Counted from the whole stretch's first letter, positions 4,101 through 53,226 are shown. The stretch: DNA of 54,128 bases, filler included, from Sphacelaria rigidula (GCA_964200075.2; 5 parts of 5 records of this genome joined end to end with filler, not necessarily neighbours in it), one strand, 5' to 3'. Made by a program: numbers and translations. The notes: generated from the sequence alone by a model not told the origin.

Positions 4101-7100
4101 TATCGCAGCGCTGAGATTACTCGCCGGGGGGCTGCTAAAACACGAAGCTATGAAAAATGCGTGATGGGGAATGTGTCGGTTGTTACCTGGCCTGTGCTTG
4201 ATTCCCCCTCTTTCCCCCGCCCTCTGTATGCTGTCTGACCGTTAACGATACGGCAATCCCCAAGTGTGGCACAAACAGCACTACATCCTGCCAACGTAAT
4301 CAAGACGCTACTACAAACCAAGGGTTCCTTCAGAGCCATATTCCCGCTCTCGTGGCAAACGCTCAGCAGAGGAGCAGGCGCTCAGTTCCTCTTGTCGCTG
4401 CCGAATGGCGCATTACACTTCGCTGTGTTGGAGGTGAGCACGTCCTCTAGTAGTACAGGGATGGGGAACATGTACAGTGTGTAAGGGTCTAAGCTAGGCC
4501 TAGCTCCATCTTGGTGAGGTTCGGGTAGTACGCTCGCTCACCCGAAACGGTGAGATTGATGTTCAAGTGTTGCTAGGTTCCGCTTTGAGCCCCACGTTCA
4601 CATTGACCCTAGTAACACGGACTATATTTGGTGCACAGCTCAGTCCCGATGATCGCCCCCGCCTGTCTCAGCTTCCTGCCGTTGCCGTTGCCTTGGAAGG
4701 CGAAGATGAGCATTGCGTTTGACGCATTCACCATCCCATTCTGCTCAAGCACACCAGGTCTTCCTCACAATCCTCTAAAAAAAGTCGAGAGTACGGACAC
4801 GAAAAAAAAAAAATGAAGTGTCACTGAGGTCATGTCCCAATGAAGAAGGCAATGCAGGTGGATGCTGGACTTGCAAGACAAAAACAGCAGCACCATTGAC
4901 TGATCGTCTGACGAAAATAATCACAAAGCCCAAGATTATAGGTTTTTATACACCGGTGCCTTCCGCTCACACACATGCCTTTGCTCTCCTCTGCAGAACA
5001 CCAAGGCTAGCATGGCCGAGCTATTCCCAGCTAGGTCTGCGTCGTTTCTGCTGGATTTTGCTTCTTGCTCGGCGGCGACGACGTTCTGCTCCATCATGAG
5101 CACACCCCAGGTATATTGGCTGGAAGCTGGACAAGGGAGGGTGGTGTGGTTGGATCCAATAACACGAACTCGAACTAGTCGGTACTCGATATCTCCCCCC
5201 CTCCCCTCCCCCCCTCCTCTTTTCTTGGAGAAGTTAACTAACATGACATTCGGTCGTATATCATGTAGGGAAACAACATTGCACTGCGACTTGCATCATA
5301 CTGCAGGTTTTTGCCCAAGTTCAAGCAGTCGAAATGCATGTGCCTCGACGCCCCATGTCCCTGCTACAACTTTCCCTCGACCATGTGGCCAGTTCCTACA
5401 ATATACTAACAAGCCTTTCAGGAAACGTTTGAGCTCGCCCGCGCGAAGAGTCCATACCTCGGACGAGGAATTTCATTGTCAAAAAATGTACTGCGTACAG
5501 TATAAAATCCATTGCCTATTGCAAGAGCCGCAACAGTCGGTACTGTATGCAGTACGCTTTTTGACAAAACAATCTATTGTTGTTATTCAGGCTGTGAAAG
5601 ATATGCACACCACGTGTCGAGATAGCACAACGTCGCCGAGCTTGTCGGTCAGCGCTGACCTGTTTGGCACCGTGGACATTGTGACATGTCAGCAATAGCT
5701 GGTTCCGGTGTTTGATCCATCTCCATGATCGTTATTGGCCGATGTGGTTGTGTTGGGATACAGAGAAGGGCGCTCCACTGTCATCAGAATAAACACAAAA
5801 AACCTGACGTAGCAGCACCGTTGATTACAGGCACGAAAGTCGCAAACAACCACCGAGCTGCTAATACTAAGTCAGCGCCGACGGCTTGGCGCAATGGTCG
5901 TGGTGACCTCTTAACACCGCCTACCACGACACGGCTTTCTTGTCGCTGCAGTGAGGTTCATCTACTGCATTGAGCGGAAAGGGTTGCAGTAACAGACGCA
6001 TGACCATAACATGACACCGTCAAGGTGGAAGCATAATTTCGTGCTGACGTGAAAATTGTCTCCTCAGGCTTCACTCTTTCGCTACGAACGTGGTATTCGA
6101 TGAAACTCAGTGCGCCCGTCTCTCAATCGCACTATTCCCGTAGATGGTTCTCACCAACCGAATTATGGCGGGGGTGTACCCGAATCTGCTGACGGGGGTC
6201 CGGAGCGTTGTTCGGGAAGCAGGGGTCAAGGGTTTCTACGCGGGGTGGTGGCCGGGGTTGGTGCAGAAGATTCCTTCCTACGGGCTGACGTGGGTGTTGT
6301 TTCAGCAGGTGAAGGACCTGCACTACACGATCGCTAAGCGCTTACCGACGAACAGCGAAAACTTCTGGCTAGGGTGAGCCTCTTTTTCGTAAGCGGTACG
6401 AGTAGCCTCGATCGAAACTTGCACAGCACAGCGACTTGTTGAGGTCACGGCACAGCCACGTGTGAGCTGCAGCCTTTTTTCGAGAAGCCCTCCTCCAGTA
6501 CTGTTCCAAAGATGATGCTTGACTTTTTCGTTTGTTTCCTTTCAAGCGTACGCTGGGCTGGTCGTTGCGCCTTTTACGCCCGTGCTCTCATGATTGGGCG
6601 ACCGGCCCAACGACTACTTTTCTCGTCTTGTGTTCTTCCGGTGAGACTCGGCCGCTGCGGATGTATGTGTGGTGAGTCTTGATGCTCTTGAGGGTAACCC
6701 TGTATGCTGCGTTTCGAAGTGACGCGTAGCGGAATTAAGAAGTAAACCTTAAGAGAGCTGTGATATTGATGCAGTTGTGTGTTTCCGTGCCCGGCATGAT
6801 GTGGTAGAACGGTGGTCATATCACGGGTTCAACCACAAGCACGAGTTGAACCCTCTTTTTGGTCGCTTCACAACCGGACAGGCAATACGTGCAGTCTAGC
6901 GTGGTTAGCGGATCCTTGTATACATCACCAGATGTCACCCACCTACAAGATGCCGGTGCTATTTTGGTACGATGTTCGCAGTTCACATGTCTTTGTTCTC
7001 TGTATGTATGTACTGGTTCGTGATGACAGGTCTGTTGCGGCCGCGGGATCGGTAACCATCATGATCCCGATGGACACGGTGAAGACTAGACTGGTCACGC

Positions 7101-7252
7101 AAGGCGTGGGATCGAAGTACAGCTACACGGGCATCCTCAATTGCTTCACGAGGATGATCCGAGAGGAGGGTATCGGCAGCTTTTACAACTCGCTCACCCC
7201 GCGACTCGTGTCTGTCGTGCCGATGATCGGCGTGCAGTATTTCGTGTATGAG
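1128..7252 (+). CDS. Mitochondrial carrier family (SLC25) protein, partial; exons 1128-1448, 4265-4433, 4997-5110, 6144-6373, 7030-7252
   Basis: Exons join in phase at GT-AG sites, giving ...FWGCMVAGAVSRS|VAQTALHPANVIKTLLQ...LHFAVLE|NTKAS...STPQ|MVLTNRIMAG...GFYAGWWPGLVQKIP...NFWLG|SVAAAGSVTIMIPMDTVKTRLVTQ...GIGSFYNSLTPRLVSVVPMIGVQYFVYE. Three carrier repeats are present, with a canonical Px[DE]xx[KR] motif in repeat 3. Start and terminal exons were not located. Confidence 0.9.
3238..3685. repeat. Unclassified interspersed repeat (copies at 43612-43990 and, reversed, 32539-32612)
   Basis: Long colinear similarity, including identical TGGTATCGCCACTTCCAGAGACAGCC and CTGATTATCTTGCAT. Confidence 0.8.
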
Positions 7253-9456
7253 GTGAGGACGCCTTCGAGGGGCGGACGAATGAATGATTCGTCTGGAAAT
7301 TACTTGATTTTTGTGTAAATGGTTCGTACCGTACGAATCAATCCTTGGGCTTCGTATTCAGCGTTGCAACCCAGGTACGCGCACCCTAGGCATGTGGAAT
7401 GGCGCAAACGTTGGCTCACCTCCCACAGATAGGGGTAACTAGAAATGAATTGAAATATCTTCGCGCGAAGCGCGATTATGGCTGAGCGTTTGAAAATTAC
7501 CACTGGGGCAAAAATCGAGGACCCACCCGGAATCAGGGAATAACTTATCGAATGGGACATGCCCTGTATCACTGTGCTGCAGCACAAACACACTCATGCT
7601 CTGGGTTGTGTGCTGTAGCTGTCGCTGCGTTGTGGCATCTTCGGGCCTTTGTGGAGACGGTTTGATCTCCGCTGGGGATGCCTGAGTTGCTTTATATTGT
7701 CATTCCGTTCGTTTCTATGAAAAATAATGTCGGCACGCGGTGCTCTCTACACACTGTTGAAACGTTCATGATGTGTTGGCTGTTTCGTCTCGAGTCAAAC
7801 GAATAAGGCGCTCCCCAAACCCATCATTTAAATGCTGTAGTTGTCGCTGTACTGTTGTGCATCTAAACACTCTACGGTGATCACGGTGCGATGTGCGCTG
7901 GAGAATGCCTGAGCAGTTGTTGTACTGCTGCACGCTGTGTCTCGGCCTGCACAGAGTTGGGGTGGGATCAAAGTGCTGTCCAAACAAAGAAAGGTTGAAT
8001 CAACCGTCACGTGACGGCTCTGCAGCTGTCTGCTGCGTCTTCTCTGGTACTTCAGTTATGGTCGGGTGCTGAGATCGGCGAAGACACGCAAGCCGGGTGC
8101 TTGCAGGTTGGGGCAAACAAACTGAGCCAGCACGGAGCTGCTGTATCCTCGTTTATTGACGGTAGCAGCTGTCGGTGTGGCAGCGGCTCAATGTGTGGGC
8201 CAATCAAAGCTACTTTTCGATTCATATTCCGCTCGTTTTTCTCATGTGATTGAAGAAAGGTCGCCACATTTTGGTGTATTTCAAGACGATGATTGATCGA
8301 AAAACCTCTCCACTCATGAATCTTGCCCCTATCTGTGGGCCCCGTGCCCAAAAATTGCATTGAGATCCTTTTGACCAGCGGTCAACATTTTTCCCTCTTT
8401 CAAGCAATCAGGCCTAAGAAATCGTGGGTTTGGTTATTCGAACCAGCAAAGATTCATCCAAACTGTGGAAGCTTTTGATAATGTCCTGATCGGGCCTCAA
8501 CGGAAGCAGCGCAGTTGAGAAGTTGTCTTTATGCCAAAACAGCTTGTACATGGCCAGATGTGTATCTCAACACGCATCCTCCCGGACGGTATTCTCTAGA
8601 GATCAATCTACCACTAGATGGGACGAGTAATTTATCTGGAATATGTTATGTCGAACTAACGCTGACCCTGACCCCAACCCAAGGAATACCGAGAACCCAG
8701 GGGCCCCTAGGCAAAGTGTGGCGTTTGCAGACCTCGAATCGGCGCCGATATAGACATGAGTGTGTTCTGCGCACACCAGGAGCACCTGGGACTGTCAGTC
8801 CTACTTTATTATTATGTTAGTATTATTATCCTATATATTATTAGGCTAAATGATCCGCCGCTCGATACTGGAATCAAGTAAGCGTGTGATCTTTCTCGGA
8901 ACAGTAATTTACATCAAACACACGGACTGAAGAGGAGAAAACAGTCACCCTTCTCGATCAAACTGCAAACGCAGGTCGAAAGATAGTCCGCGGCATTTGG
9001 TCAAGTTGAACCAGTACCCATAGAATTTTAAAACCCAGTAGTCTGGACATTTCCAATCCGACACATCGCACCCGTCCAAAGCAATTCAGTGTTTTTTGTC
9101 AGCATCGCAAAACACTGTACTGTCACCTAACCTGGAAACCCATCGCCCAACAACGGGACGTCCGACGCACGTGCGCTGCTAGAACGCAGTATAACGCACT
9201 GCCATGTACACTGGTGACTGGTGGGAAGAGCGTAGTGCGCTGCTGTCGAACGCTTTGTCACCTTACTGCCGGGTGGTTGTTCCCGCCTTGGATTTGAATG
9301 TGATTTGTTTGTTGTGTACTGAGCGCCGAACGTTCCCTCCAAAGGAGATCGCTTTCCTTTCCAGATGATTTGAAGCACACTGTTGTACAGCCCCCAGGAA
9401 CAGAGTTGAACTTCGATTTTCACACCGCTAATATATCTCTATCTCAGTGCTTCTAA

Positions 9457-10746: not shown

Positions 10747-10846
10747 NNNNNNNNNNNNNNNNNNNNNNNNNNNNNNNNNNNNNNNNNNNNTTAATTAATT
10801 AANNNNNNNNNNNNNNNNNNNNNNNNNNNNNNNNNNNNNNNNNNNN
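10747..10846. other. Artificial contig spacer
   Basis: N44-TTAATTAATTAA-N44 (stop codons in all six frames). Confidence 0.97.
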
Positions 10847-12077: not shown

Positions 12078-15000
12078 TTAATCCTTAAAAAAGAGCTCCT
12101 TGCACTGCGCCATGGTGTCAGCTGGCGAAGTGACCGTGTGCCCAATAGTCCTCTCCGACTCGAATATCTCATGGTCGTTCCCACCCTGTCCACGCAAGGA
12201 CACCAGCAATCATGGGAAAACGACGCAGTGCAAAAGAAGGCACGCACACGGAAGCGATCAAAACGAGGAGCACATTCTGTAACGTTTCCTTAATTTTCCC
12301 CCCGTGAGCCGGTGGACGCAAAGTAGTAAATGGCAGTCGTGCTCCACCAAATTTCGTGATATAACCGCAAAATGCCGAAGAACCATCACTGAGACGCGAC
12401 GGTATAACCTCTGGTGCGTCAAAGGCTGTGGTCAAAGCAACACAGCAATAATATCCAAGCATGGGCAAGTAGATTTGGCGTTTTTATGACCTCATGTTGT
12501 CTCACAGAGGTTGAAAGAAGAGGGAAAAATGTGTTTAACATGGTACCACAAGTAGACTTCAGGTCAAGACAGATGATGAAAATACTGCAACAAAAACCTT
12601 CAGTCGGAAGAGCGCTTCTTAGTTCGTCCATATCCGGGATGACATTTTGCCCAACGGTTCCTTTGGGTCTTCGCAACCCAGTGTCGACATGAACAAGGGG
12701 CAGCTTATCCCTCGACGGGAAGCAATTGGGGATCTTCATTATAATGTCATTTTTGACCAGTCGACACACGGAAGTCACACAGGGACATGCATAAATAAAT
12801 TTGAAACTACCTCCTTCGCGGCCAAGAAGAGCCATCAACAAGAAAATGGGGGGGGGGGGGGGGGGGGGGGGTTTCGGTTTCGTTGTGTCGTTGGTGGGGG
12901 AGGAAACGCCCCCCCGCTGTGGGGAGAGGGNNNNNNNNNNGAGGGGCGGGGAGGAGGGGAGGGGGGGGGGGGGGGCGGGGGGGAGGGGGGGGGGGGGTGG
13001 GGGGGGGGGGGGGGGGCGTACTCATTAGTTGCTCCCTAGTCGTTAGATGATAGGCCACGCATCCCTCTCGAGACGGAGCAAGAGAAGGGGGAGAGGAAGG
13101 GGTTACCTTGAAAGTCTTGTCGCCGAAGAAGTGAATTTCGTCAAACTCTGTCTTCCCCTCTCCCAAAAACTGAAGGCAGAACGTCTTGTCCCATCCCTGT
13201 TCGGGCAGACAAGAACAAAAAAGATTTCAACAGGAAGAAAAAAACGCAGCGGCCAAGTAGCCACATCAAACACGCACAAAACGTCGGGAGAAGGGGCCGG
13301 AATACACGGACACTCTAATAACGAGGGATGAAAAAAGAGAAGGGATGAAAAAGATACTCCTCGGCAGAAGGAAATATCGATAGAGTCGACTCAGTGTAGG
13401 GATGAAAGCGGCACGTTTTCATGCCACAACAAAGGCCCAAGATTATATCCCTCGTAAAAACGCACAGGAGACGCAAAAGTGGAGACGATCAGAGCGATCG
13501 ACCATTCAAATGTGACGCGTGTGTGCCGCCGTCCATTACATTCGTCCAGCGCGTCGGAAAAAAAACACGAAAGTCCATCACAACAGCACTATCAGCCTTT
13601 GACCCTCAATCAAGCTCTCACCATGTTCATCAAAAAAATTACGTGAGGTGGACTCCACGTCTGACCCTCATACGACACTCCGCCGATCCGGCCAGACACA
13701 CGGAATCAGGGGAGGGGAGGGGGGGGACGGAAAGACTAGAGAGGGGGATGGAAAATAAGCTACAGAGAGCCACCACCGCTACTTGGCCGTCTGAAAGTAT
13801 CTTCAAAAAGTGGTAATGTACGAGTGGCACACAAGCACCGTATCATACTGCTCCGACTCACGGTGGGGAAAAGGTCGAAGGAGATTTGCCCGCCTATCGA
13901 GAACGTAAGGTCGAGGTCCGCGAACTCTTTCCGCATCGCCGCCACCATTGTCTCGCGGATCTTGTGCTCCTGCAATAAAAAAAAAGGGATCAAGGACGGG
14001 GGACGAAGAAGACTTGACTAGCCCATCAGATCGGGGACCTGCCTACTCATGATAATCGCAACACGTGCGATGTGCTTAGTCGGAGAGAAGCAAGGAGTGC
14101 TGATCATGCCCCGACACAACAGGCCGCAACAAGGTACCTCGGGGGCATTTCCGACTCATGAGAACCATGGAATTACAGCGATAGTCTGTACTTCCATGAT
14201 GATGCTCCGTTGAGAGAAGAGATGCAAGCATTCAAGCCGAGAAGAGCGTTCTCAACATATGATTATGCACCACGACACAGGATTAGCTGTCTTTGCAGCC
14301 GAATGTGGAAGAAGCGGGGGGGGAGGAGGGGGGGGAGGGCTGAGGGGGCGAGAAAAAAAAGTGGGAAATTGAGTAAAAAAAGAATAGATTGCACTGAGGG
14401 CGCAAGAGCAAATAACTCCAAGATGCTTGACTGATTCAGTCCGTCACTCGTTGTTTGCTTGCTCGTCGCGCATCATCTGATACCAGAGTTATCCAACCGC
14501 TGTCACAAGAAACCTCGGGCAACACTCGCCATATGGGGAAACTTGCCTTGTCGTATATCTCGAAAGCATCTCGTTCCTCCTGGCTACAGTTCCTGCCTAC
14601 GGGAGAGATGTTGAGCATACCGGTGCGGAACTCGATGAAGGTGCCCCTGTGATATTCGGGAATTCCCCGTCGCATCCGGAAACAGACAACCCGGGGATCA
14701 GTTTCGCACGGTCGAACGGTCGGAAAGAGGAAGAAGAAGCGGTTGGTGAAGGAAGTACACATCGGCGACATCACAGCGGCCAAGCAAAAGCGCGTCAAGT
14801 TCCAGAGACGAGATGGAGCCACCTGGACAATTCGAACAAACACTATCATGGCCGTTTGTAAACTCTCACCTCCGGTCTCACAAGGCGAGTAACAAGTGCA
14901 TGAGTACGCCCCCCACTTCATAACATGCACCACAACGTGCATTCCGGATCATCACTGATCCCCGCAGCTCGTTCTTTCACACTGCTCAACAAACGCAGAG

Positions 15001-18000
15001 GTTATTCCATATTCTACGGTGGTTAATATTATGGCCGATTCGCGACATCTGGCGCTCATCGACGGTTCCAGGACGTCCTTGGAGGACTTCTTTCTTCGTC
15101 GGATTCTCGACACCACCATACAATCGGAGCGATTTTTCTCGTCCATCCATTCATCGATCTGCCCTCGTCTTTCGGATATCCCCCCTTCCCCCCCTTTCCC
15201 CCCCAATCCTCTTTCCCGACACATACTCCACTACGCCACGCACTGAGAAGAAAAAAGCATATGTTCATCATTGAAGCTCGCTGGCGGATTGCCTCACCGG
15301 TGCTGCACCAACCTACCCATATACCCATTTATTTACTTCCACTTTTGACTGGGGAGCGTTCATTCATGGACTTTCACTACAAGAGCATTGCGGCATGTAA
15401 AGCCAACAAGTTCTTTGTGGCAGATCGATTGGCCACCACACATTCGCGTGACCTCTCACGCATCCCCTCGCAGTCTCCAGAGAGACGTACCCGGAGGAGT
15501 GAAAACACACGGACGATACTTTTGTCGACGGAAGCTCGAGAAAAGTGCAGTCGGAAATTTCAAGGAGCATGATGCACGAAAAACAAAAGTGAAATGATAA
15601 ACCAAGACTGTTTTTTACAATTGGTATTGGGGGGAAGGAGGGGGGGAGCATTCTCCCCACTTGTGCGATATTTGAAACGGTCTTTGGCGCGCGAATAAGG
15701 GATGTCACTGCCACACGTCTGGGACACGTCGCAGCAGCACCCCGAGGGGAGTCTAGCCCACTTTTCCGATTCGCTTGGCTCCGAGGTTTCAAGTATTACT
15801 TGTGAACATGAGCCCAGATGGACAACAAGATGCGGTGTCTGCGAGTATTCATCCAAGATATATTCAAGACGTGTGATGTGATATCCCTCGTTCGGACACC
15901 AAAGGCCGTGTCAAATGTCCCACAAGTGAAAATAGTGTCCCCCGCGCCCCCCCCTTCCCTCCCTCTCCCCAAGAAAAAGCACCATCCGTGAGAAATTGTC
16001 GGGGAGCCGCAAAGAGATGCGGAAAAAAAAGCGAGATCAATGAATGGAGGAGCAAAACTCATAGTGAGAACTTCACAGCCCAACGAAGCCCAAAATCAAA
16101 ATCCGTGCGATTTTCTCCCCCTTTTTCATCACCCACCTTTTCACTGGGATCTCGATACCCGACATGTACTTGAGGACCCAGTTGATGATCCTCTTCAAGT
16201 TGTCCTCTCCCAAGTGGGTGGAGATTGTCTACGAGCCGCAGGAAACAAGTCGATGAAAAACACAAAAAAAACGACCGGGCACGCAGTGCAGCCAGCAGTC
16301 ACCAGCGTAGTACATGGGCAGCACACATTGCAGGGGGAACGGGCAGCGAGTTAAGGGTGTTGGGAGGGCGGACGCGCGGTCAACAGCGTTCATCATGATA
16401 TGTGCCAAACACCCATCCATGAGAATTTCTACGGAAAAAATCGCTTGTGTCGCCCACACAGATCAAACCCTAGTTGCTGGACATGAGGAAGATACGCGTG
16501 AATTTGACGTTGACGGCGAGATTTTCGGAAATTTCAGGGGTCTACACGTTACACGTGCCATAGGGTTATACGTAACGTTAACGAAAAAAAACTTTATGAT
16601 GTAACGGGGGCGTAAGGTTGAAATTCCAAGTGAAACGTCAACGTAACGTTTTTTTCCAACGTGACGTACGTAACGTAACGTGAACGTTCAATTGCACAAA
16701 CGTCCAAATCAGGTAATATGAACCGTTTCATGTAAGGTGTAACGTCTATTTACGTTACACGTTAAACGTAACGTTATATATGACGTTACACGTTACATGA
16801 AACGTCAAGAACACGTCACATCATGACACGCAGTGGTGAAACTTCAAGTTTATATGAAATTTCAAATCCTAGAAGGTGGTGCTTGAATAAACGCGAGTGA
16901 GTTTGAATGACCATGGTATAGGTATGGTACTAGTGCAGAAATTTCGCGCGCAATAGATACAGCACTCTGCTGTCGTGTCGGGGTGTACGGTCCGTACTGA
17001 CTGTGTGTACTACTGTAATACATTGCCTGAGCAACACATGGTGGGCTGCGTGACGCAAGACGATCAGTACGAACACCGCCTCGCTGTACTAGTAACTCAC
17101 TGTAGAATTGACGGCTGTACTCCTCACTGCACGGTAGGACTTGACTGAAAGGAAAGGATGGACAAGAGTACACACAACAGTACTGTGTTGTATGCATCGG
17201 CTGTGAACTTCTTCGTGGGATTGAGAGTAGAGCGCTGATTGGGAGTGGCTTTGTTCATTCGCTTGAACTCAGCCAATCATCCATCCCGTGTACGCTTCTT
17301 CTCCCCTCCATAACTGGCGTGTGCTTGAAGCTACCCGTCGATACTCTACCCAAGGATATAAAGGGCCTCAGTGACAAGTTACTACAGAAGGACTAGTGGG
17401 CCTCGTGGAGGGGCATTTCGGAACTGAAACGGGTATTTCATTAATTGGCCGCATTTCACGAAAACTTTGTTTGTAGTGATGGCTTGGCTGGCATCATCAC
17501 TGCTGTCGCTGGTTCTCGGGAGCAGTCAGTGTTTTGCTTCACTGTCCTTCGCTCGCCAGTAGCGTGATGGCCCTCACCTCTTACCCCCGTGAGAACAAAG
17601 CAGGGCAGGGTCCATGACGAGTGCTGTCAGACACTCTGTATGTAGGTTGCACAATAATGTAGTTCAGTTCCGGTTTGTGAATAGATGCAGCAGATGCAGC
17701 GTGTTGCGAACAGAACTCTAATACAGTACAGACTGCCCAAGCACCCAAGGCCTGCAGACACTACAGCAGAAGCACTATTGCTTATCCTGTGGTCTTTTAT
17801 GTACGGTCAGTGTGGTCCTGTCTCTACCATTCTTGGGTGCGTGGGCGGTCTGTACCGCATCGCGAGTGCCATTTGCATCACGCCGCATGCAGACCTGAAA
17901 TGCGAGCCATAATACTCTCTGTGCAAACCAAACACAAGAGTGTTTGTGCAGCATTCGTCATGAACCGTGCCCTGTGCTGTTGTCATGGGGTGAAGACCTA

Positions 18001-19724
18001 CCATGATACTGGCGAGCGAAGGAATATGAAGCAACACGCTGACTACCTGCGAGCACCAGCGACAGCAGTGGTGATGTTAGCCAAGCCACCCATGGCTGCT
18101 GTCATGGGCTCCAGTGTGTGCTGGCGAGCGGCGGGGGATTTCAAACGCGTTTTCTGATCACATATGGAGTGGGTCATCAGAAAACGCGCTTTTTCCTTCA
18201 GCTTTCTTCATACACGAGAACTCGCCGACGGGTCACCGTCAGCGTCACGTACACGGAAACATCACGCCTTAAACGGCACGTTACAATGCCTCAAACACTG
18301 GTAAATGAGCCGGAACATGCACAGAATGAAACGTTACATTCGAACGTTACACTTGTCAATGTAACGTTACATTAGACGTGACACGGGACATTGAAACGTT
18401 TCATATCATGTTACATGTAATGAAACGTAACGCTAACTTTCTTTTAAGTGATGAACGTAACGTGCTAATTCATTCAACGTGACATACGAAACGTGAACGT
18501 TAAGTAATTGTTACGTGATGAACGTGACGTGAACGTTAACATGTAACGTGTAGACCCCTGGAATATTTCAACTATTCCACTGTAAATCTAGCCTTGGTCT
18601 AGTCATCAGGGAGGCTTAGGTGTTGTTGGAAAATAAACAAGAGACACCGATGGACAGACACGCAGGCACACTTGTGGAGTATGACAAACCTTGGTGCCGA
18701 TGAGTTCGCCAGCCTTGTACGCCACCAGACCGTTTTGGGAGAAGCTGTAGTCGTAGTCCTGCATCACTGTTTTTTGCGTTTCGATTCATTTTCCACAAGC
18801 AGCAACAGTTTGATTATTTCAGAGTGACGCGGACAACTTCGGTTCACTCTTTTTCCAAGACCCCTGACATCATGTGTGAGCTCGTCTCCAGCTGTTGTCA
18901 CGGCTTTCACAAAAGTTCAACTAAATACCTGGTAACCAACCACGACGCTATTCCAGCACATTAGTTCTTCTACTCATGGTATTTCGGGATTTTCCTTGTA
19001 TGCACCCGTGTTCATCGTGCAGTATAGGAAATTCTACAGCGAGAATTTTGAAGAATCCCACCCACCATGATAGTGGCCATCGACAGTGAGATCACGAATC
19101 TATAATTCTCCGTACGGGAATTACTGATGAGTATACCGTAGCTACGCTTCTGCAAACTATGGTGTTTGTGTTGCATCCAACACTTCAATGCCCAGTTTTT
19201 TTAGTTGGGGTGGAGTTGAACGCGGCACAAATTAGTTGCATCGAGGCGTTCCAGCTCGGTTCGTTTCGGTCCAGTTTTCATATCTGATGAGTGACCATAG
19301 ATGCCTACACAAAAACTTAAGGATTCGAGAGCCGAAAACTGCTGTTGCCACGACAATGCCCTGTGTCATTATTCATCGTGCGTGAGCGTTTGACCTTGTG
19401 CGAAGGTGAGTCGGTGATCGCCATGCCAGCAGAGCACTCGCTATGATCATGTTTGTGCGAAGATTGCAAGGCTCGTGTGAGCGCATCTGTCCAGGGGGGC
19501 AGAATCTAGAGAAAGACAAGAATGTGCGCCCATTCCCAGACAGCTTAAATCATCCACGACTCGGCAAGAGTTAATTTTTTCACCACAAAGATAAGTCCCA
19601 CCGTCTCCTCACCAGACTCCCCCAGTTGCTCCTTTTGCTTGGGCAAGTCAGAGCCGCCCACAACGCCGATGGTGATGCGCTCCCGGAGCTTGGCCATGAA
19701 CTCCACCATATCAGGCAAAACCTC
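12078..19724 (-). CDS. PMM: Eukaryotic phosphomannomutase (HAD IIB), 5'-partial; exons 19724-19613, 18766-18690, 16228-16137, 14646-14547, 13969-13862, 13196-13107, 12185-12078
   Basis: Spliced translation has PMM motifs [81 protein letters not shown] and [28 protein letters not shown], ending KELFFKD*. All intron phases are consistent. The DxDGT first exon is absent from the contig. Confidence 0.96.
15660..15950. repeat. Interspersed repeat shared with 21195-21480
   Basis: GGAGTCTAGC.CACTTT...GATTCGCTTGG(G)CTCCGAGGT...CATGA..CCAG occurs in both places. Both are near ATTGGTATTGGGGGG tracts, and 21490-21562 also matches 13014-13080. Confidence 0.6.
17238..17364 (+). promoter_or_regulatory. 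Putative Pol II promoter: inverted CCAAT, CCAAT and TATA boxes
   Basis: ATTGG at 17238-17242, AGCCAATCA at 17271-17279 and TATAAA at 17357-17362, ~120 nt upstream of the hairpin. Confidence 0.35.
17480..18088 (+). ncRNA. Candidate long hairpin RNA (~270-nt arms, 80-nt loop)
   Basis: 17480-17750 is an imperfect reverse complement of 17831-18088. It includes a 34-bp uninterrupted stem with 3 G.U (17480-17513 with 18055-18088) and a 17-bp perfect stem (17545-17561 with 18007-18023). Transcription is not demonstrated. Confidence 0.45.
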
Positions 19725-21592: not shown

Positions 21593-21692
21593 NNNNNNNN
21601 NNNNNNNNNNNNNNNNNNNNNNNNNNNNNNNNNNNNTTAATTAATTAANNNNNNNNNNNNNNNNNNNNNNNNNNNNNNNNNNNNNNNNNNNN
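21593..21692. other. Artificial contig spacer
   Basis: N44-TTAATTAATTAA-N44. Confidence 0.97.
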
Positions 21693-22823
21693 GAGTAGTG
21701 ATGCGGCGGCCGCGGGCGCAACCGCGAAAGAGAAAACACTCGCGGAACCTACGGAACGTTGGACTGGCAAAGGAAACCGCGGAGAGCGCTTCAACCGATG
21801 GCGGTGGTGGATCCGGCTCTCCGATTGCCGTTGACTCCGCTCCCCGTCCGCGTTGCCGTGGTTTCGCAGCAGCAGCTGCAGCCCACGCGCAAGTGAGCGG
21901 TGCCGTGGCCGGACCCTCGAATTCAACACGTCAATTGGAGAGCATCGTCCACCGAGAATTGGAGGCTTTCAAGACAACATCTGGGGTAGACATGTCGAGC
22001 TATGACAAGGATGGCAAGCTGGTTCTCGAGGACCCACTGCAGTGGTGGCGTGTTAAGGCGCGGGAATACCGCATGCTGGCCGCACCGGCTCGCCGGGTGT
22101 TGTGCATTCCCGAGTCCCAAGCCCAGTCGGAACGTGTGCTTCGGCAGCGGGCCAAATCGCAACGCCGACACGTTCTCGGCTCGACCCCGAACACGTAGAG
22201 CTCATGGTATTCCTTCGCTATCCTGCCCGAGGCAGACAAGTTGAATGGAGGGGAGAAGAGGAAAGCCTAGGAAGCGGCAGCATTGGGCCTTGCTCGCGTA
22301 CGATAGGCTTTGATTTGGGCAGTGAACAATTGGTGTAAGGCCCGAAGCGAAGACGTGGGCGTAACATTAGTAACAGTAGCATCCTCCTATCCTGAGTCTA
22401 TCTGCTACCTATCTGCTATATATTTTGGACGCGTGCACACGCGCGGAATNNNNNNNNNNCCTGCTAGCCGCTCAGCTCTACTACTTTTGGTAGCCAGCTA
22501 TCCGGCTGTTCCTAGGTGCACAAGTAGCAGCACGTGCCTACACTTCTCCTTTTTCACGTGTTTTTTTCTGTCTTTTCCCCCATGTTTTCTGCATGTAGTG
22601 AAGTCCATTCCGGTTCCAGCAACCCTCGATTTCGCACGGATTTTGAAGGCACATAAAGCCAAATGGCCCAAGTTTTCTGCCTCCGGCGGCGCCTCCAGCG
22701 AGGCCCCCTCACCAGCCGGGGGGGGGCGATGGTGACTCGCTTCGCTCGCCGTTCATCGGTATATCGGCTGCGCCGATATCCGATGTTTAACAGATCGGAA
22801 AACGTAGACGGTTCACAACCCTA
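21693..22823 (+). mobile_element. 3' part of a second hAT transposon (hATC domain remnant plus right TIR)
   Basis: DPLQWW...LAAPARRVLCIPESQAQSERV, then a frameshifted SAAGQIATPTRSRLDPEHVELMVFL. The element ends ...GGTTCACAACCCTA (reverse complement TAGGGTTG...) directly against Gypsy RT sequence. Confidence 0.8.
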
Positions 22824-22984
22824 AGGAAAATAGAAAGCGTCATCCACTCACACTTTTCGGCTCAGACATCGATAAATGTCAGTCAGCACACCTCGGAAAT
22901 ACGCCGTGGTGTTCAACACGCCCTGTGGAACACGAGTAGGCGTAAACAAACCGTCAGGCGTGACGATCGTGGAGATACCCTGAG
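22824..22984 (-). mobile_element. Continuation of the Gypsy RT between the two hAT insertions
   Basis: Minus strand reads QGISTIVTPDGLFTPTRVPQGVLNTTAYF...V*VDDAFYF, in frame with APEAQG on the far side of the hAT TSD. Confidence 0.88.
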
Positions 22985-23013
22985 TAGGGTTGCTCATCAA
23001 CTTAATAATCACG

Positions 23014-23266
23014 GGTGATTATGACTCAAAAGTTGATTTGATTATGCATCAACATTGCATCAACATTTTTATGATTAGTTGATTACAAAATCAACTAATC
23101 AACAACAATCGAATCATTCATAATAACTTGGTTTATTGGTGATTATGACTAAAACGTTTATTTGATTATGCATTAACATTGCATCAACATTTTTATGATT
23201 AGTTGGTTGTAATCGACTAATCAACAACAATCAAATCATTCATAATACCTTGGTTTATTGGTGATT
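23014..23266. repeat. Subterminal ~124-bp tandem duplication in the hAT 5' end
   Basis: GGTGATTATGACT...GGTTTATT units start at 23014 and 23138, with a third start at 23260. Confidence 0.85.
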
Positions 23267-23443
23267 TGTTGATTTTTGGGGGGAAAAGAGGAGGCGTTTC
23301 CGTGTAACGCTATTTTTTGCCTGCGGCGCAACCAATTAACGGAGAGATATGATCCTGACGGCGGACGGCAGCACACAGCAGACTGTGCGCCACACAGCAC
23401 AGCATTCCCGCAGGACGCTGAAAGTTATACACAACACTACATC

Positions 23444-26400
23444 ATGAGTGGCGCGGCTAGCGTCAGTGCAGGGGTTGCATCCGCCTCCGACAACGCGAAA
23501 AGTCCTCCCAACAGCAGTGAAATCAACGCTGAAGGTGATGGGCATACAGCCGATGATGCCTTGATGCTGGGAAGCTCTGACTACGGCTCTGACGACGGCT
23601 CTGACTCTGACCACGGTAAGGGCTTGCGCCCAGGCGGCGGCGATGGTGTCGACTCCGATGACGACAACAGCGGCGAATTTTCGGAAAGCGAAGAAGTGTC
23701 TCAACGGAGACTTGAACATGAAGAACAGTCAGTCAAGGCTATCTCTACTCATGAGTCCTTGCACACTAGGTGGAAGTCGCCTGTTCAAAACAAATTCCCA
23801 GTCTGGAAGTTGTTTTTGCAAGGCGCGGACAAAAAACATAAGGACAACGCTTTGTGCAAGGTTCCTGGCTGTAACCAGAAAATTAGTGCCAAGGCGACCA
23901 CCAACGTAAGACAGCATATGAACGCCAGACACATTAAACACACCCCGTGGGCCGACTTTCTCAAGCAGAAAGCACCTCAGAAAGCGGGGAAAATTCTTAA
24001 TGATGAAGGAGAAATTCAAAACTACTTTGTGGCTGATGAGGAGGCGAGGCACACCCGGCTCGTCCTTGGGTTCATTGTCGGCGGACACAAGCCGCTCACT
24101 GTCGTCGAAGAGCTGGAGTTCCAGAAAATGCTCCGTGGCTTCACGAAAAGGCCGAACCTCGTTGTCCCGTCTCGAGCGAGCGTCGGAGATCTTCTGACCG
24201 AAAAGGCGATCGTCGCCCGGACGGGGGTAATGGAGATGGTAAAGGGCCAACAACTGAGCATGACCTGCGATGGTTGAACTTCGGGCAACGAGATTTCTAT
24301 GATGGCCGTCACAGCGCACTGGATCGATGATGCTTGGAAAATGAAGTCGGCCTGCCTCGGTGCGTCTGAGGTCGCCGGATCTCATACTGGTGTCACGTGG
24401 CAATCGTATTTGGGGTCAACTGTCTCGTGTTTCACAGTCCTGACTCATCATCGCAAATACCAAAAACAAATGCGATCAAGCCGCAGTTACAGCAGCTTAC
24501 GGCAGCATTAGATTTCGCGCGCGTTCTAATAACATGTTGCTGTCGTTTGCTCCTCCGATTACGCAAGACTCGCTGACGTACTGAAAGGCGTCCTGGCTCA
24601 GTACAACATTCGTGAGGAGGACATTACGGCGGTGACGACAGACAGCGGCAAGCCAGAAGAACGCGATCGTGGTCCAAACAAACATGGCTTGGTTACCCTG
24701 CATCTGCCATGTGATGAAGTTGGTTATGGGCGTTCTCATGAAGCGCTTGAGCAAGGTGTGATTGAAGTAGTGTGTCCAGACCAAAACTAAAAGCCTTGAC
24801 TTCAAGAGCAAGAAGTATCAGTTCTTGGTTACCCTTCGTTTTTATGTTGGATTTTCCACATCCAGATGCAGGTTGAAATAATTGGCCTACCGGGTGGACC
24901 TGGATGACCTGCAGCAGACAAACACATTATACGTCATTCGCATCACGAAGTCGACCCATCGTTCTCCGCTTGCTCGTCGTTCGACCAATAACTCTCATTT
25001 CTTACAGGCTCTCGCCAGGTGCATCGGATAATTTCCCACATTCACCGTTCGCACGCGGCTAAGACCAAGCTGCACGAAGCGCAGAAGGTCCATCAGCTGT
25101 CCCAGACCACCCTTCCCACCCACGTGGCTACGAGGTGGTGGTCCACGACAACATCAGTCGTCGCGTTCCTCCACAACAAACAGGCGGTTGTTCTGCTGTG
25201 CGAGTGGGCGACCACGATCCAGTCAAAGGAGAACATAGCTCCCTTGGTGGACGAAGAGTGGCAGGTAGGTGGTGTGCAAATTTGTAAGCTGCGTCGGAAA
25301 TGCTATGAAGAGTCGCAATATTCTGGCGCGTATGACTTTAAGGGTCGCCGACAAGTGTGTTTCCAAAGCTTCAAAACTGGTTTCAAAGTCCTCTCGCGCT
25401 TTTTAAGTCTTCCAGGTTCTTGCAGACGTCGAAGCCATCTGCATGAAGTGGGCAAAGCTGCAGAAACAACTGGAGGCGGAAAAGAAGGTCACCATAAGCA
25501 CCCTTGACTTAATCGTCGACGACGCTTCCGACACGGTTTTCACCTCAAGCACCGACATAAACTTATGCAAGCAGGTACTATCAGGTTCGTTACTCTCTGT
25601 TGTACCGACGCCATGCTGTCCATGAGGACTGCTGTAGACATAAAGCACCACAGATCGTGGGGCGAAAAAGTGTCGATTAGGTGCCGCTACTACAGTAGTT
25701 CATGTTGTAAACGTTCATCACTTGTATAATTTTTACCTTCCAGGCCAGGGAATGCGCCGAAGCCATGATAATAATAATAAATAATGATTATATGGAGGCT
25801 GATATGTACAAGAGATTGCACCCCGAAGACGAGATCAGAAACATCGGGAGCAAGCTGCACAACGGGAACCCCCTACGGATCGCCCGTACGGCTCACGTTG
25901 TTGATCCACGTATGAAGAGCGGCATGTGGGCCGACCTAAGCGAGATGGAACCGTGAGTACAGGGGGCAGATATCTACGCGATACAAAATAAACCCTGATT
26001 GTGCTATCAGTACTCCTTATATAGGGTATGCACTCGAATATTTGGGTGTATTCCAAGCAAAATGTAAGTCTCGTTCGGCTGCATCAGCGCTCATTCAAAC
26101 GTTCTCGTGGTGTTTTTCGTCGCAGATGATGACTGATCGAGTGCTGCTCCCCATCTACCGTTTCCCAAACCAGGCTTTTTCTCGGCGACGTAGAGAAGGA
26201 GCTAGAAAGTGTCATCAGCGCGGAGGAAGCGAAACAAAGCCAGCCACCTACACAGCCAGAAGTCGTGGCGGCGGCCGTCCCGAGCGCAAAAAAAAAGGAG
26301 AAACATGGCGGGTGCTCTATCACGAGCCTCATGGAGCAGGCAGCCACGAGGAAGCAGACTCAAAGAGACATGGATATGACGGATGCCGTTGCGGATGGAG

Positions 26401-26738
26401 CCGTCCCTAGCCCAACGAGGAAGAAGACGAAAAAAGCATCCGTTTCGAAGAGGATTCAAATCTTGACTGAATGGGGCCTCTACAAAGATGAAGAAGTTTC
26501 GGCGGATGATGTGGCCGAAGCAGGCGGTGCTCTAGGGTGGTGGGCGAAAGCCCAGCGGGCATATCCCCATATCGCTACCCTAGCTCGCAAGTACCTCGCG
26601 GTTCAAGCTTCATCTGCTGCATCCGATCGTGTGTTCTCCGTAGGCGGACTCGTGGTCACGAAGACCCGAAACCGCCTTAGTGGGGAGCGGGTGGAAGACA
26701 TCGTCTTCCTTCCCGAAAGCATGAAACATGATCTCTGA
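23444..26738 (+). pseudogene. hAT transposase, intron-containing, disrupted
   Basis: BED-finger (W..F..CKVPGC..HMNARH), SMTCDG*TS (stop at the conserved W), AVTAHW, VTTDSG followed by a frameshift, CICH, TRWWS, DPR, and the C-terminal hATC region WWAK...LARKYLAVQASSAASDRVFS (D in place of the usual catalytic E). About five GT-AG introns. Confidence 0.88.
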
Positions 26739-27719
26739 TAGAAATCACACCGCTACCCTGGTGGAGATTGCTGCTGGGCTCTGGAACATGAGCTTTTCTG
26801 CTTACCACGCACTGATTACAGGGGATCGGAGTTGAACGAAATATTACACTCAGTGCAAAGTACTAGTACATCAGTTGTAGCAGCACACTAGACTTATATA
26901 TTGAAATACGGGTGGTTTTCATATATATTGTAGATATCTAGTGGGCATGTACGTATGGTTTGTGGTAGAAGATGGTAGGAGATGTACTCATGCGCACGCA
27001 CGGACCCACGATTTGACACATCGGCATTTACTTTGAGTACGGGTGGTGTTCATATATATTGTAGATATCTCGTAGGTATGTACGTATGGTTTGTGGTAGT
27101 AGATCGTAGGAGGTGCTAAAACATATCTGGTACACTACAGGCACGAGAACCCGATAGTCTTCTTGCTGTTGCAAACATGTTGCTTCAGGCAAACAAAACA
27201 CGAAGAACAACACAACGACCGGACGAAGACGAAGCGCGTGATGCCCATGCAGCTGGGATATTGAACCGAACACTGCTTCTCTGACCGTGCGCATGCGTTG
27301 GTGTGCGCATGCGTGGCGTGTCCGCTGTTCAAACGCTTCAAAAATAATCAACAATCAATAAGTAGTTGATTCAATTCCCGACTACTGCCGTGATAGCCCC
27401 CCCCCCGAACCGGCCAAAAACGTGCACGGAGACGATGACCGTAACTGTTGTTAGAGCTGCTTTCGTGCTGCACGGCGCGACTTATTCGGGCGTTATAGCT
27501 GATTTCGGACTGCTTCACGCCTCTCATGTTGGCGAATTGCTGCAAACGAGCCCAACAGTAGAATTGTAGCCGGTTTGTCGGACGGTCTCCGGTGCACTTT
27601 TTGTGAGGGGGCTATCTCGTCATGAGTATCCCGTGGTGTTAAATCAAGCCAATTTGGACAAAATAATCACGAATCAAAGCAATCTCCCCAAAAAGTTGAT
27701 GAGCAACCCCAACCCTGAG

Positions 27720-30349
27720 CCTCCGGCGCCAGAAGCATCTGCCAATATCCCTAGAGCAGGTCCAACTTTCCGAAGTATTGGGCTCCCAGCAACTCCCGCA
27801 TATCTTCTTGGCTTGGCATCACCCTCGGAGACTGTCCCACTTGCGCGTTCACCGCCTGGTAGTCCCTGGCCAAACGAAATGTGTCCCGCTTCGGCACCGC
27901 CATCACCGGACTCGCCGACACAGCCTGACTGTTCCTAACCAGCAAATGAAACTCCACCAAAGCTGCGATGCATGAAGCGAGCCACCCGGTCTTCATAGGA
28001 TCGTAACGGCAAGGCTTGGCCTTCACAGCCTTCGCCTGTGGCGTGAGCTGCACTCTCATTGGCCCCACGCGCGCTGGCGGATCACCACGCAGCGCACGAC
28101 GAAATGTATCCACGCGACGAGCCAGAATATCAAGCAGGCGATATGCGCCAAGGACGCTCAGGCCCTTCAACTCGGCCTGCTGCACGCTATCCTCTAGCGT
28201 ACGTTCTGTGGCACCTCTCCCCTCCGCAGGATCCAAGAACATGTCGGGCCTCCGATCGTCCGAGCGATCCACCGCTTCATCCGCAGGAGCCTCCTCCTTA
28301 TTGGCTCTCCGGAACGATCATATGGGTACGGTGACACGCCTCGCAGCAAGATAGCTGGGATTCTCCACGCCATTGCACCGGCACAGCACGCGGGCGTAAC
28401 TTATCCAACGCCAGCGGATACAAATCGACCCCGAGCTCCTTCATCGTCGCCATCCCAAACAGAACCACGTTGTCCCTGCCGAGCATGACAGCGAAAGTGA
28501 TGGGCTACAACTCCACAGCCCCCCACGGCGTACGCACGCTAACAGCAACCGGCACCGTTTTATGAGTAAACGTCACGGCAGTACCCGTGGCGGTCTGCGC
28601 CGTTTGCGGTCCATTTTCGAACGGAATCTGCAGCTGAGCGCCGCCAAACTGCGAAGACATTTCTTCTGGCGATCCCACACCAATCGACGTGAGCGTGGAC
28701 CCAGACTCCAGGATAGCGCGGGCCAGGAACGAACCTACGGAACCAGGCAAAGAAAGATCTTCGCGTAAACACTCTGCGTTGCGATCGACAGGCACCACAC
28801 CTGCCGAAGAACCCTGGTCGGTACCAAGAGTCACCTGATGCCAGGGCTGTGCTCCAGTACTTGGCATCGATAATTGAGAATCGGCGGTCCACCCAGACCA
28901 GGTCGCCGAATATGCAGACGGCGCTGTTACAGCCATCGCAGCAATAGGAGATGCACTGGACACAGATCCTGCCTGGCCGAGGGGTTGCGAACTATTCGCT
29001 CCAGCACTCCCCACCGAAGAACTTGCACCTCCCACGTACACTACCCGCCGCAACACGGACGAACCAGAAGATCCAGAGTCAACACCTGATGACGTAGTGG
29101 AAGAAACAGCAGCGGAGGAACTACCATCCGCCGCCGATTGCTTGCTATCGCGGGCGCGGCGGCCGCGTCCATGGTTGGCACGACCCCGTCTACCGTGGCG
29201 ACCGCCGCGAGATCCTGATGAATCTCGCGCATTTTCTTCAGCAGCACCTTGAGCGCGAGGCTTGGGGCAATCCTTAATCAGGTGTCCATTGTCGCCGCAG
29301 TTGTAATACGCGCGAGTGGACAACGCTCGCGAAGACGACTGCTGTTTCTGTTGTTGTTGCTGTTTGCGGCGCGCACCTCCTGCACTTGCTGTAGAGCCGC
29401 GGCGCCGTCCATGCGCCTCAATAAACTTCCAATGGTCGGCGGCATCAAATATCTTGTTGAACACCACGGTCGGAGTTTTTTTCCAGCCGTCTACATATGT
29501 GAGTACGCTTCTGACATACGCCTCGAATTCCGGAGGCGAAATCCCGTCCACCAAACCTGTGGAAACCGACTCGGCAGGGTCTGGCAACCAGCTCCTGTCC
29601 TCCGCACGGTACATGGCTTGCACCGTGAGATTTTCTGTGAAAAACGTTTCCATCGATGAGTTAACCATCATCGCTCTATCATGGACGGATGTTCCACCGC
29701 TTTCTTGCATTTCAAGCACTTTACGCAGGTCTGCTGCAGCCCGCGCAGTGTCATGTTTGCCGGTGGCTGTGGTGTGTACCCGGCATGCTGCTTCACAGCA
29801 TCTAGCAATTCGTCGGGGGTCACAGTACGATGGTCCTTGTACGTGCCTTCAAAGCACCGATGAATGTACGTAGGGATGAGTTGTCCAATGCTCACCCTTG
29901 CATGCCTTACGACTCCTTGTGTATTTGCGAGGTACAAACACTTTTTGTAATCAAAATAAGCGGCGTAAGAAATGCGTGATGCTTCCTCGGTCCACACCTC
30001 GCCATACTTTGGCAGGTCTAGTGGCTCTCTCAAAACCAGCGGAGCTGCCGCCGCTTGAACCATGTCGTCTCTGGCTCAAACACTTCACGGAAAGACTCTT
30101 GCTTGACTAGTGCGTCCTCCAGCCTACGGAGCGTCCTCTTCCACTGTGCGCTTAAAGTCGGTCTCCTTCCACCTGCGGGCCAAACTGCTTCAAGCTGCCG
30201 CTCCTTTTCCTCAGCCAAACTCCTACAACAGAGAGCCGCTGCTGCTGGCCGAGAGTAACATCTACATATTCTAGCCTCTGCCAGACGATCTGAACAAGAG
30301 GACTTTCAACGAGGGACTCCTCCGGTATAACTGGCCTTGTGCTCGACAA
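27720..30349 (-). mobile_element. Decayed Ty3/Gypsy LTR retrotransposon: gag, zinc knuckle, protease, RT N-terminus
   Basis: YYNCGDNGHLIKDCP (degenerate CCHC), AILESGST (protease D to E), LGRDNVVLFG, SASPVMAVPK..FRLARDYQAVN, YFGKLDLL*GYWQ. Multiple stops and frameshifts. Confidence 0.88.
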
Positions 30350-32438: not shown

Positions 32439-32538
32439 NNNNNNNNNNNNNNNNNNNNNNNNNNNNNNNNNNNNNNNNNNNNTTAATTAATTAANNNNNN
32501 NNNNNNNNNNNNNNNNNNNNNNNNNNNNNNNNNNNNNN
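32439..32538. other. Artificial contig spacer
   Basis: N44-TTAATTAATTAA-N44. Confidence 0.97.
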
Positions 32539-43283: not shown

Positions 43284-43383
43284 NNNNNNNNNNNNNNNNN
43301 NNNNNNNNNNNNNNNNNNNNNNNNNNNTTAATTAATTAANNNNNNNNNNNNNNNNNNNNNNNNNNNNNNNNNNNNNNNNNNNN
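43284..43383. other. Artificial contig spacer
   Basis: N44-TTAATTAATTAA-N44. Confidence 0.97.
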
Positions 43384-53100: not shown

Positions 53101-53161
53101 TGGTTCCGTGTCGCGGCGTCCATGCGGCGGTGCTGCTGACTCGGCGTCTGCCCCGGCACAA
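44115..53161 (-). CDS. MPN/JAB (JAMM)-domain protein, MPND/MYSM1-like, partial; exons ~53161-50566, 46555-46424, 45111-45055, 44231-44115
   Basis: Phase-0 joins give ...HNLIPPQ|VYGEKGGYFEHVQQPFRVE|VHPNVLFVADVHAYAMDAAEIIGILAGRFDPAKNVLHVQ, resembling the N-terminus of MPND/MYSM1 MPN domains (QPFxVxV...DxHxH...E[VI][IV]GxLxG). The 836-aa open frame ends at CAG|gtaagc (50566). Linking the big exon to the MPN exons is inferred from strand and phase, and both gene ends are off-contig. Confidence 0.75.
45571..45790. mobile_element. MITE (~220 bp) with repeated CCTC(C/T)GGAGG palindromes
   Basis: Ends CACACGCGGCCACTTGGCTA and TAGCCAAATGGCTGCGTGTG are near-perfect inverted repeats. Confidence 0.7.
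48060..48778. mobile_element. Possible Tc1/mariner (Stowaway-like) non-autonomous element
   Basis: TA-CTCCCTCTGCCCCCATAA...TTATGGGGGGGGGGCGGGTG-TA: degenerate TIRs with TA flanks. Confidence 0.45.
48779..49000 (-). mobile_element. Non-LTR retrotransposon (LINE) 3' fragment
   Basis: KEHLKMYGGLREGTGLKRYLHDPIEY resembles LINE ORF2 C-terminal remnants (from recall, not searched). 48930-48997 is duplicated at 47967-48041. Confidence 0.45.
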
Positions 53162-53226
53162 CTGTTACGTCGAATGCATGGACGAAGCAGGAAAGACGGA
53201 GTGGGGCGTCATGGATGCGAGTACTT

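Follow-up and report, generated by a model that had tools for sequence, protein, structure and literature searches.

Several described systems show how the inverted duplications of transposons can be drawn into RNA silencing. In Mu killer of maize, a long inverted duplication derived from a transposon is transcribed by read-through from the promoter of a neighbouring gene into hairpin or double-stranded RNA (dsRNA), and both small interfering RNAs (siRNAs) and silencing have been shown (PMC3440606). Composite insertions of Ac/Ds, which form via alternative transposition, likewise carry long inverted duplications for which read-through dsRNA, siRNAs and silencing have been shown (bioRxiv 10.1101/2020.01.07.897926). 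Among microRNA (MIRNA) and hairpin-RNA (hpRNA) genes derived from MITEs (miniature inverted-repeat transposable elements) or other inverted repeats, a transposon fold-back could enter Dicer pathways (review, PMC10004981; preprint on structure and siRNAs in maize, 10.1101/2022.10.17.512609). Here we analyse a locus of Sphacelaria rigidula (GCA_964200075.2) in which a transposon-like element, located at positions 16535-18560 of a 54,128-nt stretch of DNA (hereafter the window) and within an intron of a phosphomannomutase (PMM) gene, contains a 609-nt fold-back. This hairpin had been proposed to be a dedicated, promoter-driven hpRNA gene carried by the transposon. Our results indicate that the locus is likely an aged copy, no longer mobile, of a non-autonomous hAT-like transposon with many relatives in the genome, in which the hairpin is a neutrally decayed by-product rather than a selected RNA gene.

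The likeness of this locus to Mu killer and to the Ac/Ds insertions is one of architecture only. Each involves a long inverted duplication of transposon sequence, and the intronic position observed here offers the same route for read-through. However, those systems duplicate transposase or terminal inverted repeat (TIR) sequence of an active element, whereas the duplicated sequence in S. rigidula is non-coding cargo whose arms have diverged by 22%. As with the MITE-derived MIRNA and hpRNA genes, a transposon supplies the fold-back, but there the hairpin usually derives from the element’s own TIRs and its processing is documented. The hairpin described here is internal, unrelated to the TIRs, far longer than a microRNA precursor (pre-miRNA), and bears no sign of selection. 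A further parallel exists with fold-back or long-TIR elements, given that two long inverted arms take up nearly all of the 609-bp unit, which occurs in many copies. Unlike those elements, it has no target-site duplication around its arms and no tandem subrepeats within them, and it may lack mobility of its own.

Contigs from four public sequencing runs (X1, X4, X6 and X7) were placed on positions 15900-19100 of the window (3201 nt) at an identity of at least 85%. X1 and X4 are DNA runs, the latter from another study, whereas X6 and X7 are classed as RNA-derived solely on the basis of a spliced PMM joint, and the parts of the locus left uncovered in these two runs carry no evidential weight. 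Because the contigs are assembled, their summed depths do not translate into copy numbers, and strand, transcript starts and expression level cannot be read from them; a ratio of RNA to DNA summed depths was dropped as a ranking of expression, which contig depths cannot support. Statements on variants refer to the 40 of 273 variant rows listed, and those on joints to the 15 of 185 listed. Chance expectations were derived from shuffled sequences for the TIRs and the fold z-scores, from all equally spaced 8-mer pairs in the window for the flank match, and from window-wide densities for the promoter motifs.

The arms of the fold-back

When the two arms of the 609-nt fold-back (17480-18088) are aligned, 193 positions match, 55 mismatch and 31 columns contain a gap (78% identity). 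A long inverted repeat of this kind is able to fold from either strand, with a minimum free energy (MFE) of -350.5 kcal/mol (z = -25) on the + strand and -340.4 kcal/mol (z = -18) on the - strand. The basal stem is continuous over 34 bp on the + strand only, where it contains 31 Watson-Crick pairs and 3 G.U pairs that become A.C on the - strand, and a perfect stem of 17 bp is located at 17545-17561. The arms and both stems are thus present as the original prediction had described them, and its 80-nt loop measures 82 nt. The 17-nt word of the perfect stem was found at 73 metagenome loci, all of them chance occurrences; the longest extension reached 35 nt, and none continued into the arms.

Selection on a + strand RNA stem had been proposed from a by-eye count of about a dozen G.U pairs versus about five A.C pairs. 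Over the full alignment, transitions between the arms yield 14 G.U and 14 A.C pairs on the + strand, with the two types exchanged on the - strand (binomial p = 1.0), together with 27 transversions. The MFE structures agree, with 17 inter-arm G.U pairs on the + strand and 16 on the - strand. The apparent excess arose because the basal 34 bp alone give a ratio of 3:0, which cautions that a wobble-bias test needs the whole stem. The + strand fold is favoured by 10 kcal/mol, which amounts to 3% of the total energy and to some 1.5-2 standard deviations of the shuffle spread. A strand-specific signature of selection is absent. A non-significant G.U excess is one of the outcomes that the original prediction had named as refuting it, and the claim of a selected + strand stem is unsupported.

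The history of the mismatches is consistent with this result. The Kimura two-parameter distance (K2P) between the arms is 0.27. Fourteen of the listed variants fall in the arms, where they touch 13 of the 55 mismatched pairs, and at all 13 of these the letters held by the majority of the family form a Watson-Crick pair. Therefore, the two arms descend from a single family sequence, and the mismatches are changes specific to this copy. Judged from these alignments, the arm mismatches show the pattern of neutral decay rather than of compensated or wobble-tolerated change; neither wobble bias nor compensatory change, either of which would point to selection for pairing, was found.

The palindrome could stem from a cargo segment that was duplicated in inverted orientation, or from a fold-back repeat nested in the element, after which its arms would have drifted to their present identity by ordinary, unbiased mutation. 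No target-site duplication of the arms’ own was found, as their flanks (GTAGTGA and CCCATGG) share no direct repeat. Removal of the adjoining repeat module on the left (module C, see below) does not reveal one either (GGCTGT on the left versus CCCATGGCTG on the right). Just outside the right arm, a 14-nt segment at 18095-18108 is a direct echo (13/14) of the inner right-arm segment at 17976-17989. This echo hints that the rearrangement that made the palindrome may have been more complex than a single inverted duplication.

A transposase-less element in a PMM intron

Transposons of the hAT superfamily have short TIRs (about 10-25 bp) that follow a YARNG consensus, and they generate 8-bp target-site duplications. 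The S. rigidula element starts with CAGGG, and its TIRs are identical at 19 of 19 positions, as originally reported, or at 21 of 22 on extension. The terminal 18-mer has only two sites in the window, and two or more matches occurred in 0 of 100 shuffles. The 8-mers on either side, GGAAATTT and GAATATTT, have 6 of 8 letters in common, a level reached by 232 of 51160 8-mer pairs of the same spacing (0.45%). The near 8-bp duplication noted earlier is hence imperfect, although compatible with a decayed target-site duplication. Short repeated motifs form subterminal arrays, as is characteristic of hAT ends: the left 300 bp contain 23 copies of ACGT, the right 300 bp contain 17 and the 1426-bp interior contains one, against a window background of 0.31 per 100 bp. 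The short repeats of the left subterminal region are probable transposase-binding repeats.

These features parallel those of internally deleted or rearranged Ds-like derivatives and of hAT MITEs, as do the absence of a transposase (the four largest internal open reading frames, or ORFs, have no Pfam matches), the high copy number and the existence of short derivatives that retain only the ends. The element departs from such relatives in its imperfect flanking duplication, in that no autonomous partner with matching TIRs was found, and in its subterminal motif, which is ACGT-based (AACGTTAC-like) whereas the subterminal hexamers of Ac/Ds are of the AAACGG type. It is probably an ordinary composite transposon of the non-autonomous hAT kind, and the transposon half of the original prediction, namely a TIR-bounded, transposase-less member of a high-copy family with hAT-style ends, is upheld.

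A small palindrome at 16723-16805 in the left subterminal region has 23-nt arms that are 96% complementary, and it yields sub-threshold matches to Rfam miRNA-precursor models on both strands (21-29 bits versus gathering scores of 53-110). A search of Rfam at E values up to 1 gave only these matches, which are confined to the palindrome. This structure illustrates the ease with which transposon ends mimic pre-miRNAs.

The host gene was established from two lines of evidence. The Pfam PMM family is matched by five ORF fragments on the - strand whose order is collinear with the family model, and contigs of the two RNA-derived runs join 16228 to 18690 (depth 3474 in X6 and 5207 in X7), a joint that is absent from X1 and X4. 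The skipped segment ends in CT..AC on the + strand, equivalent to GT..AG on the - strand. Therefore, the host is a PMM intron of 2461 nt, with its 5ʹ splice site 129 nt and its 3ʹ splice site 306 nt away from the element. The + strand is antisense to PMM, in agreement with the earlier proposal. A non-autonomous, hAT-like element would thus have inserted into this intron, and the insertion accounts for an intron length of 2.5 kb versus about 0.43 kb. The coordinates of the element, its parts and its surroundings are compiled in Table 1.

Table 1. Element, internal modules and host-gene features at the locus (window coordinates)
Feature	Position	Strand	Sequence or length	Remarks
Element	16535-18560		2026 nt	Bounded by 19-bp TIRs
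Left copy of a putative decayed target-site duplication	16527-16534		GGAAATTT (8 bp)	6/8 match to right copy
Left TIR	16535-16553	+	19 bp, starts CAGGG	19/19 complementary to 18542-18560
Left subterminal region	16535-16834			ACGT-containing short repeats and small palindromes; repeat families D1-D7, I2/I5
Module B, internal repeat	16835-17204			Right edge (17204) is a recurrent break point; no Pfam match
Module C, separate and more abundant repeat	17205-17479			Carries ATTGG, CCAAT and TATAAA; adjoins palindrome
Left arm of inverted duplication	17480-17749			78% complementary to right arm
Loop/spacer of inverted duplication	17750-17831		82 nt	Apex also seen in diverged copies, e.g. X4 record 11 at 17688-17844, 22 differences
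Right arm of inverted duplication	17832-18088			Up to 79 distinct contigs per position, e.g. 18048 in X1
Module E, internal	18089-18260			19-nt palindrome at 18143-18191 (I7); arm echo at 18095-18108 (D10); high repeat depth
Right subterminal ACGT-rich region	18261-18560			Ends in right TIR, 18542-18560
Right copy of a putative decayed target-site duplication	18561-18568		GAATATTT (8 bp)	
PMM intron hosting the element	16229-18689	-	2461 nt, GT..AG	Element makes up 2026 nt
PMM exon downstream of intron	16136-16228	-		Pfam PMM positions about 61-91, E = 9.1e-07; edges from joint at 16228 and loose ends at 16136 (X6/X7)
PMM exon upstream of intron	18690-18767	-		Pfam PMM positions about 31-59, E = 2.7e-05; edges from joint at 18690 and loose ends at 18767 (X6/X7)

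The abundance of the family is evident from the number of contigs that match the 3201-nt stretch, which is 5973 for X1 and 5649 for X4. Those of X1 include 347 with at least 99% identity, 1212 with 95-99%, 2599 with 90-95% and 1815 below 90%. Single positions of the element are covered by 17-82 distinct contigs, and therefore every part of it, the arms included, is a high-copy repeat. Each unique flank is largely covered by a single long contig of low depth (records 1, 8, 9 and 16; depths 31-73). Five of the listed joints connect 16686-16690 with 18438-18511 and represent short end-only derivatives that lack the cargo. Multiple dispersed copies, as expected of a hAT family, are thereby indicated, with no exact copy number implied. 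Within the window, none of the element’s parts was found a second time, and the 18-nt TIR word had 0 matches in metagenome contigs and 0 in viral contigs.

Contigs with 8-14% differences cross the borders between arms and loop (X1 record 7, X4 record 11, X6 record 21 and X7 record 29), and X6 record 20 and X7 record 28 run from module C into the left arm. Thus, the hairpin-bearing arrangement exists in more than one copy. Other copies lack the left arm or all of the cargo. The palindrome was not found in a foreign context among the displayed contigs, and the break point at 17204 together with uneven depths shows modular reshuffling.

Contigs of X4 cross both junctions between element and intron (records 9 and 16), and the insertion is therefore common to a slightly diverged genome. 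Over about 635 nt of plain intron, X4 departs from the window by three substitutions and a 4-nt deletion, and its hairpin contig (record 12) departs at two places over 357 nt. On these numbers, which are too small for a test, stronger conservation of the hairpin than of the intron is not apparent.

A second hAT element occupies 22985-27711 (4727 bp). Its TIRs, which start TAGGGTTGC and TGGGGTTGC, are perfectly complementary over 17 nt, its ends read TAGGG/TGGGG, and a perfect 8-bp target-site duplication, ACCCTGAG, is present at 22977-22984 and 27712-27719. Transposase pieces occur in several + frames and include the Pfam hAT C-terminal dimerisation domain (E = 9.5e-15). A Cys/His zinc-finger-like stretch appears BED-like by eye only, and the ORF at 23273-24274 has no Pfam match. 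The ends and subterminal repeats of this element are unlike those of the element at 16535-18560.

Promoter motifs, transcripts and rival accounts of the hairpin

The interior of the element is a mosaic of repeat modules, one of which is the 609-bp inverted duplication with arms traceable to a single family sequence. The module that precedes the hairpin, module C, has its own distribution. Joints that leave the family sequence at 17204 are present in contigs of X1, X4 and X7. One of these reaches 17792 by way of 28 other letters and thus lacks both module C and the left arm; X7 carries it too, and its depth in X1 is 2801. Another leads to 18086 on the opposite strand, which provides an arm start in left-arm orientation without module C. 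One variant lacks 17205-17481. Loose ends at 17212 whose leftward sequences disagree with one another (agreement about 0.5) were observed in 114 contigs of X1, 102 of X4, 27 of X6 and 32 of X7, and summed depth over the 3201-nt stretch peaks in bins 17184-17504. Given these mixed left flanks, the peak depth and the copies that lack it, module C is an independent and more abundant repeat. TIRs were sought in this module and none were found (the best inverted match is 8 nt), nor did it yield a tRNA with ARAGORN or an Rfam family.

The motifs that had been taken as a promoter in front of the hairpin all lie in this repeat. Their positions are as given originally (ATTGG at 17238, AGCCAATCA at 17271 and TATAAA at 17357), but their number is unremarkable. 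TATAAA has a density of 0.15 per kb in the window, and CCAAT and ATTGG have 0.82 per kb each; the 650 bp upstream of the arms contain 1, 1 and 2 occurrences of the TATAAA and CCAAT/ATTGG motifs, which is the chance density. With motifs at chance density, in a separate module that some copies lack, the promoter assignment is not sustained.

Contigs of X6 and X7 that match the locus exactly cross its left border (16495-16654) and its right border (18505-18655), and others fall within the hairpin, at 17647-17797 and 17976-18126. At depths of 2-4 they resemble a plain-intron contig at 16321-16513 (2.7), whereas the spliced exon contig reaches 3474-5207. Unspliced PMM pre-mRNA or traces of DNA would give this pattern, which is only a hint of transcription. 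No transcript start near 17385 is visible; the break points at 17398 and 17430 are also present in the DNA runs, and therefore mark boundaries of divergence rather than RNA ends. Relatives of module C are plentiful in X6 and X7; 14 X6 contigs with A at 17335, for instance, have a summed depth of 6616, which exceeds that of the spliced PMM contig.

How these observations bear on a dedicated + strand hpRNA gene, in which a CCAAT/TATA promoter within the cargo drives a hairpin whose pairing is selected and which the transposon spreads, can now be assessed. Such a gene would fit the length and stability of the hairpin, the continuity of its basal stem on the + strand only, the 10 kcal/mol by which the + strand fold is favoured, and a diverged contig that spans module C and the left arm in an RNA-derived run. 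These points are offset by the equal counts of G.U and A.C pairs, the small share of the total energy that the strand difference represents, the family-majority pairing at 13 of 13 testable mismatches and the chance-density motifs in a dispensable module. The intron-level depth of exact-match contigs that run over both element borders argues weakly in the same direction. We consider a dedicated gene highly improbable, and the hpRNA half of the original prediction is unsupported, though not disproved. Because the arms have drifted without bias and the motifs are at chance density in another module, the hairpin is best seen as a structural by-product of transposon rearrangement.

A hairpin that is not under selection might nevertheless act. 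RNA would be made passively on the - strand within the PMM pre-mRNA, and this transcript would be predicted to fold (-340 kcal/mol, z = -18) and could be diced. Unselected hairpin copies that are read through from host genes in this manner could therefore yield siRNAs that repress the family in trans, an effect for which Mu killer and the Ac/Ds composite insertions provide precedents (PMC3440606; bioRxiv 10.1101/2020.01.07.897926). The element does lie in a transcribed intron, RNA-run contigs cross both of its borders, and the arrangement occurs in several diverged copies. However, the 22% divergence between the arms has left few perfect duplex stretches of at least 17 bp in this copy, and incidental silencing of this kind seems unlikely. 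The broader proposition, that hairpin copies scattered in introns of expressed genes constitute a mobile source of read-through siRNAs that polices the family or genes sharing the arm sequence in trans, is quite unlikely.

The palindrome might instead be an inverted duplication of a captured glutaredoxin gene fragment, and thus a proto-hairpin aimed at that host gene. A 158-codon open frame at 17681-18154 (+) matches P0001, a protein with three glutaredoxin domains, with E = 1e-4 and 38.5 bits. This is the sole match among 1.84 billion representatives, and it aligns collinearly with about 80 domain residues, with 32 bits to domain 3 versus at most 16.9 bits for reversed controls. However, the phmmer score sums three near-identical target repeats, and we calculate that chance alone would produce about 100 single alignments of 38 bits in a library of 2.4e11 residues. 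The Pfam Glutaredoxin family gives no match even at E values up to 10, and no other glutaredoxin in the library passed. A homologue search with P0001 returned P0001 alone, and a search for shorter proteins returned nothing. In the same frame, the left arm, which descends independently from the same ancestor, retains only 4 of 14 matching residues and scores 25 versus 60, which therefore looks like the regression of a chance match. Capture of a glutaredoxin gene is thus very unlikely, and on the grounds of the missing Pfam domain, the left arm and the summed repeat score we rejected the similarity as a probable chance match.

Several observations weigh against the account that we favour, namely a decayed copy of a hAT-like transposon with an unselected hairpin. 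The diverged contig over the junction between module C and the left arm (X7 record 28) has a depth of 157.8, and some family members that combine the two are modestly transcribed. An autonomous partner with the same TIR was not found in the window or in the metagenome and viral contig collections, and the sole hAT transposase in the window belongs to the element with different TIRs at 22985-27711. The family evidence consists only of short assembled contigs from public runs. Lastly, the TIRs are perfect over 38 bases whereas the flanks show changes at 2 of 8 positions and the arms have diverged by 22%, which would be odd had all these parts aged jointly at this site; some of the arm divergence is probably older than the insertion.

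Other features of the window and biological meaning

Upstream of PMM, an ORF fragment at 6800-7315 (+) contains a mitochondrial carrier domain (Pfam E = 1.7e-18) and therefore marks a second host gene. A 447-codon open frame at 28508-29848 (-) encodes a CCHC zinc knuckle (Pfam E = 1e-4) and may be a Gag-like retroelement gene. An 896-codon open frame at 50521-53208 (-) has no Pfam family and no usable match in the protein atlas. These two frames lie in GC-richer stretches (0.55-0.59), and the latter is part of the GC-richest portion of the window. Runs of N occur at 10747-10846, 21593-21692, 32439-32538 and 43284-43383, as paired 44-N blocks every about 10.85 kb, and gaps of 10 N at 12931-12940, 22450-22459 and 36928-36937. 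They resemble masking or scaffold gaps, and none overlaps the element.

As it stands, the locus is a matter of routine repeat annotation, which puts on record a hAT-like family that is abundant and has subterminal repeats based on ACGT. The locus also offers a caution, in that an RNA gene cannot be claimed from the mere presence, within a transposon, of a long, stable hairpin located 3ʹ of a TATA box. If hairpin copies in introns do serve as sources of siRNAs, they would be a mobile, self-spreading counterpart of maize Mu killer. Should small RNAs be found on the arms, the family would provide a convenient case of rearranged DNA transposons seeding RNA silencing outside plants and animals.

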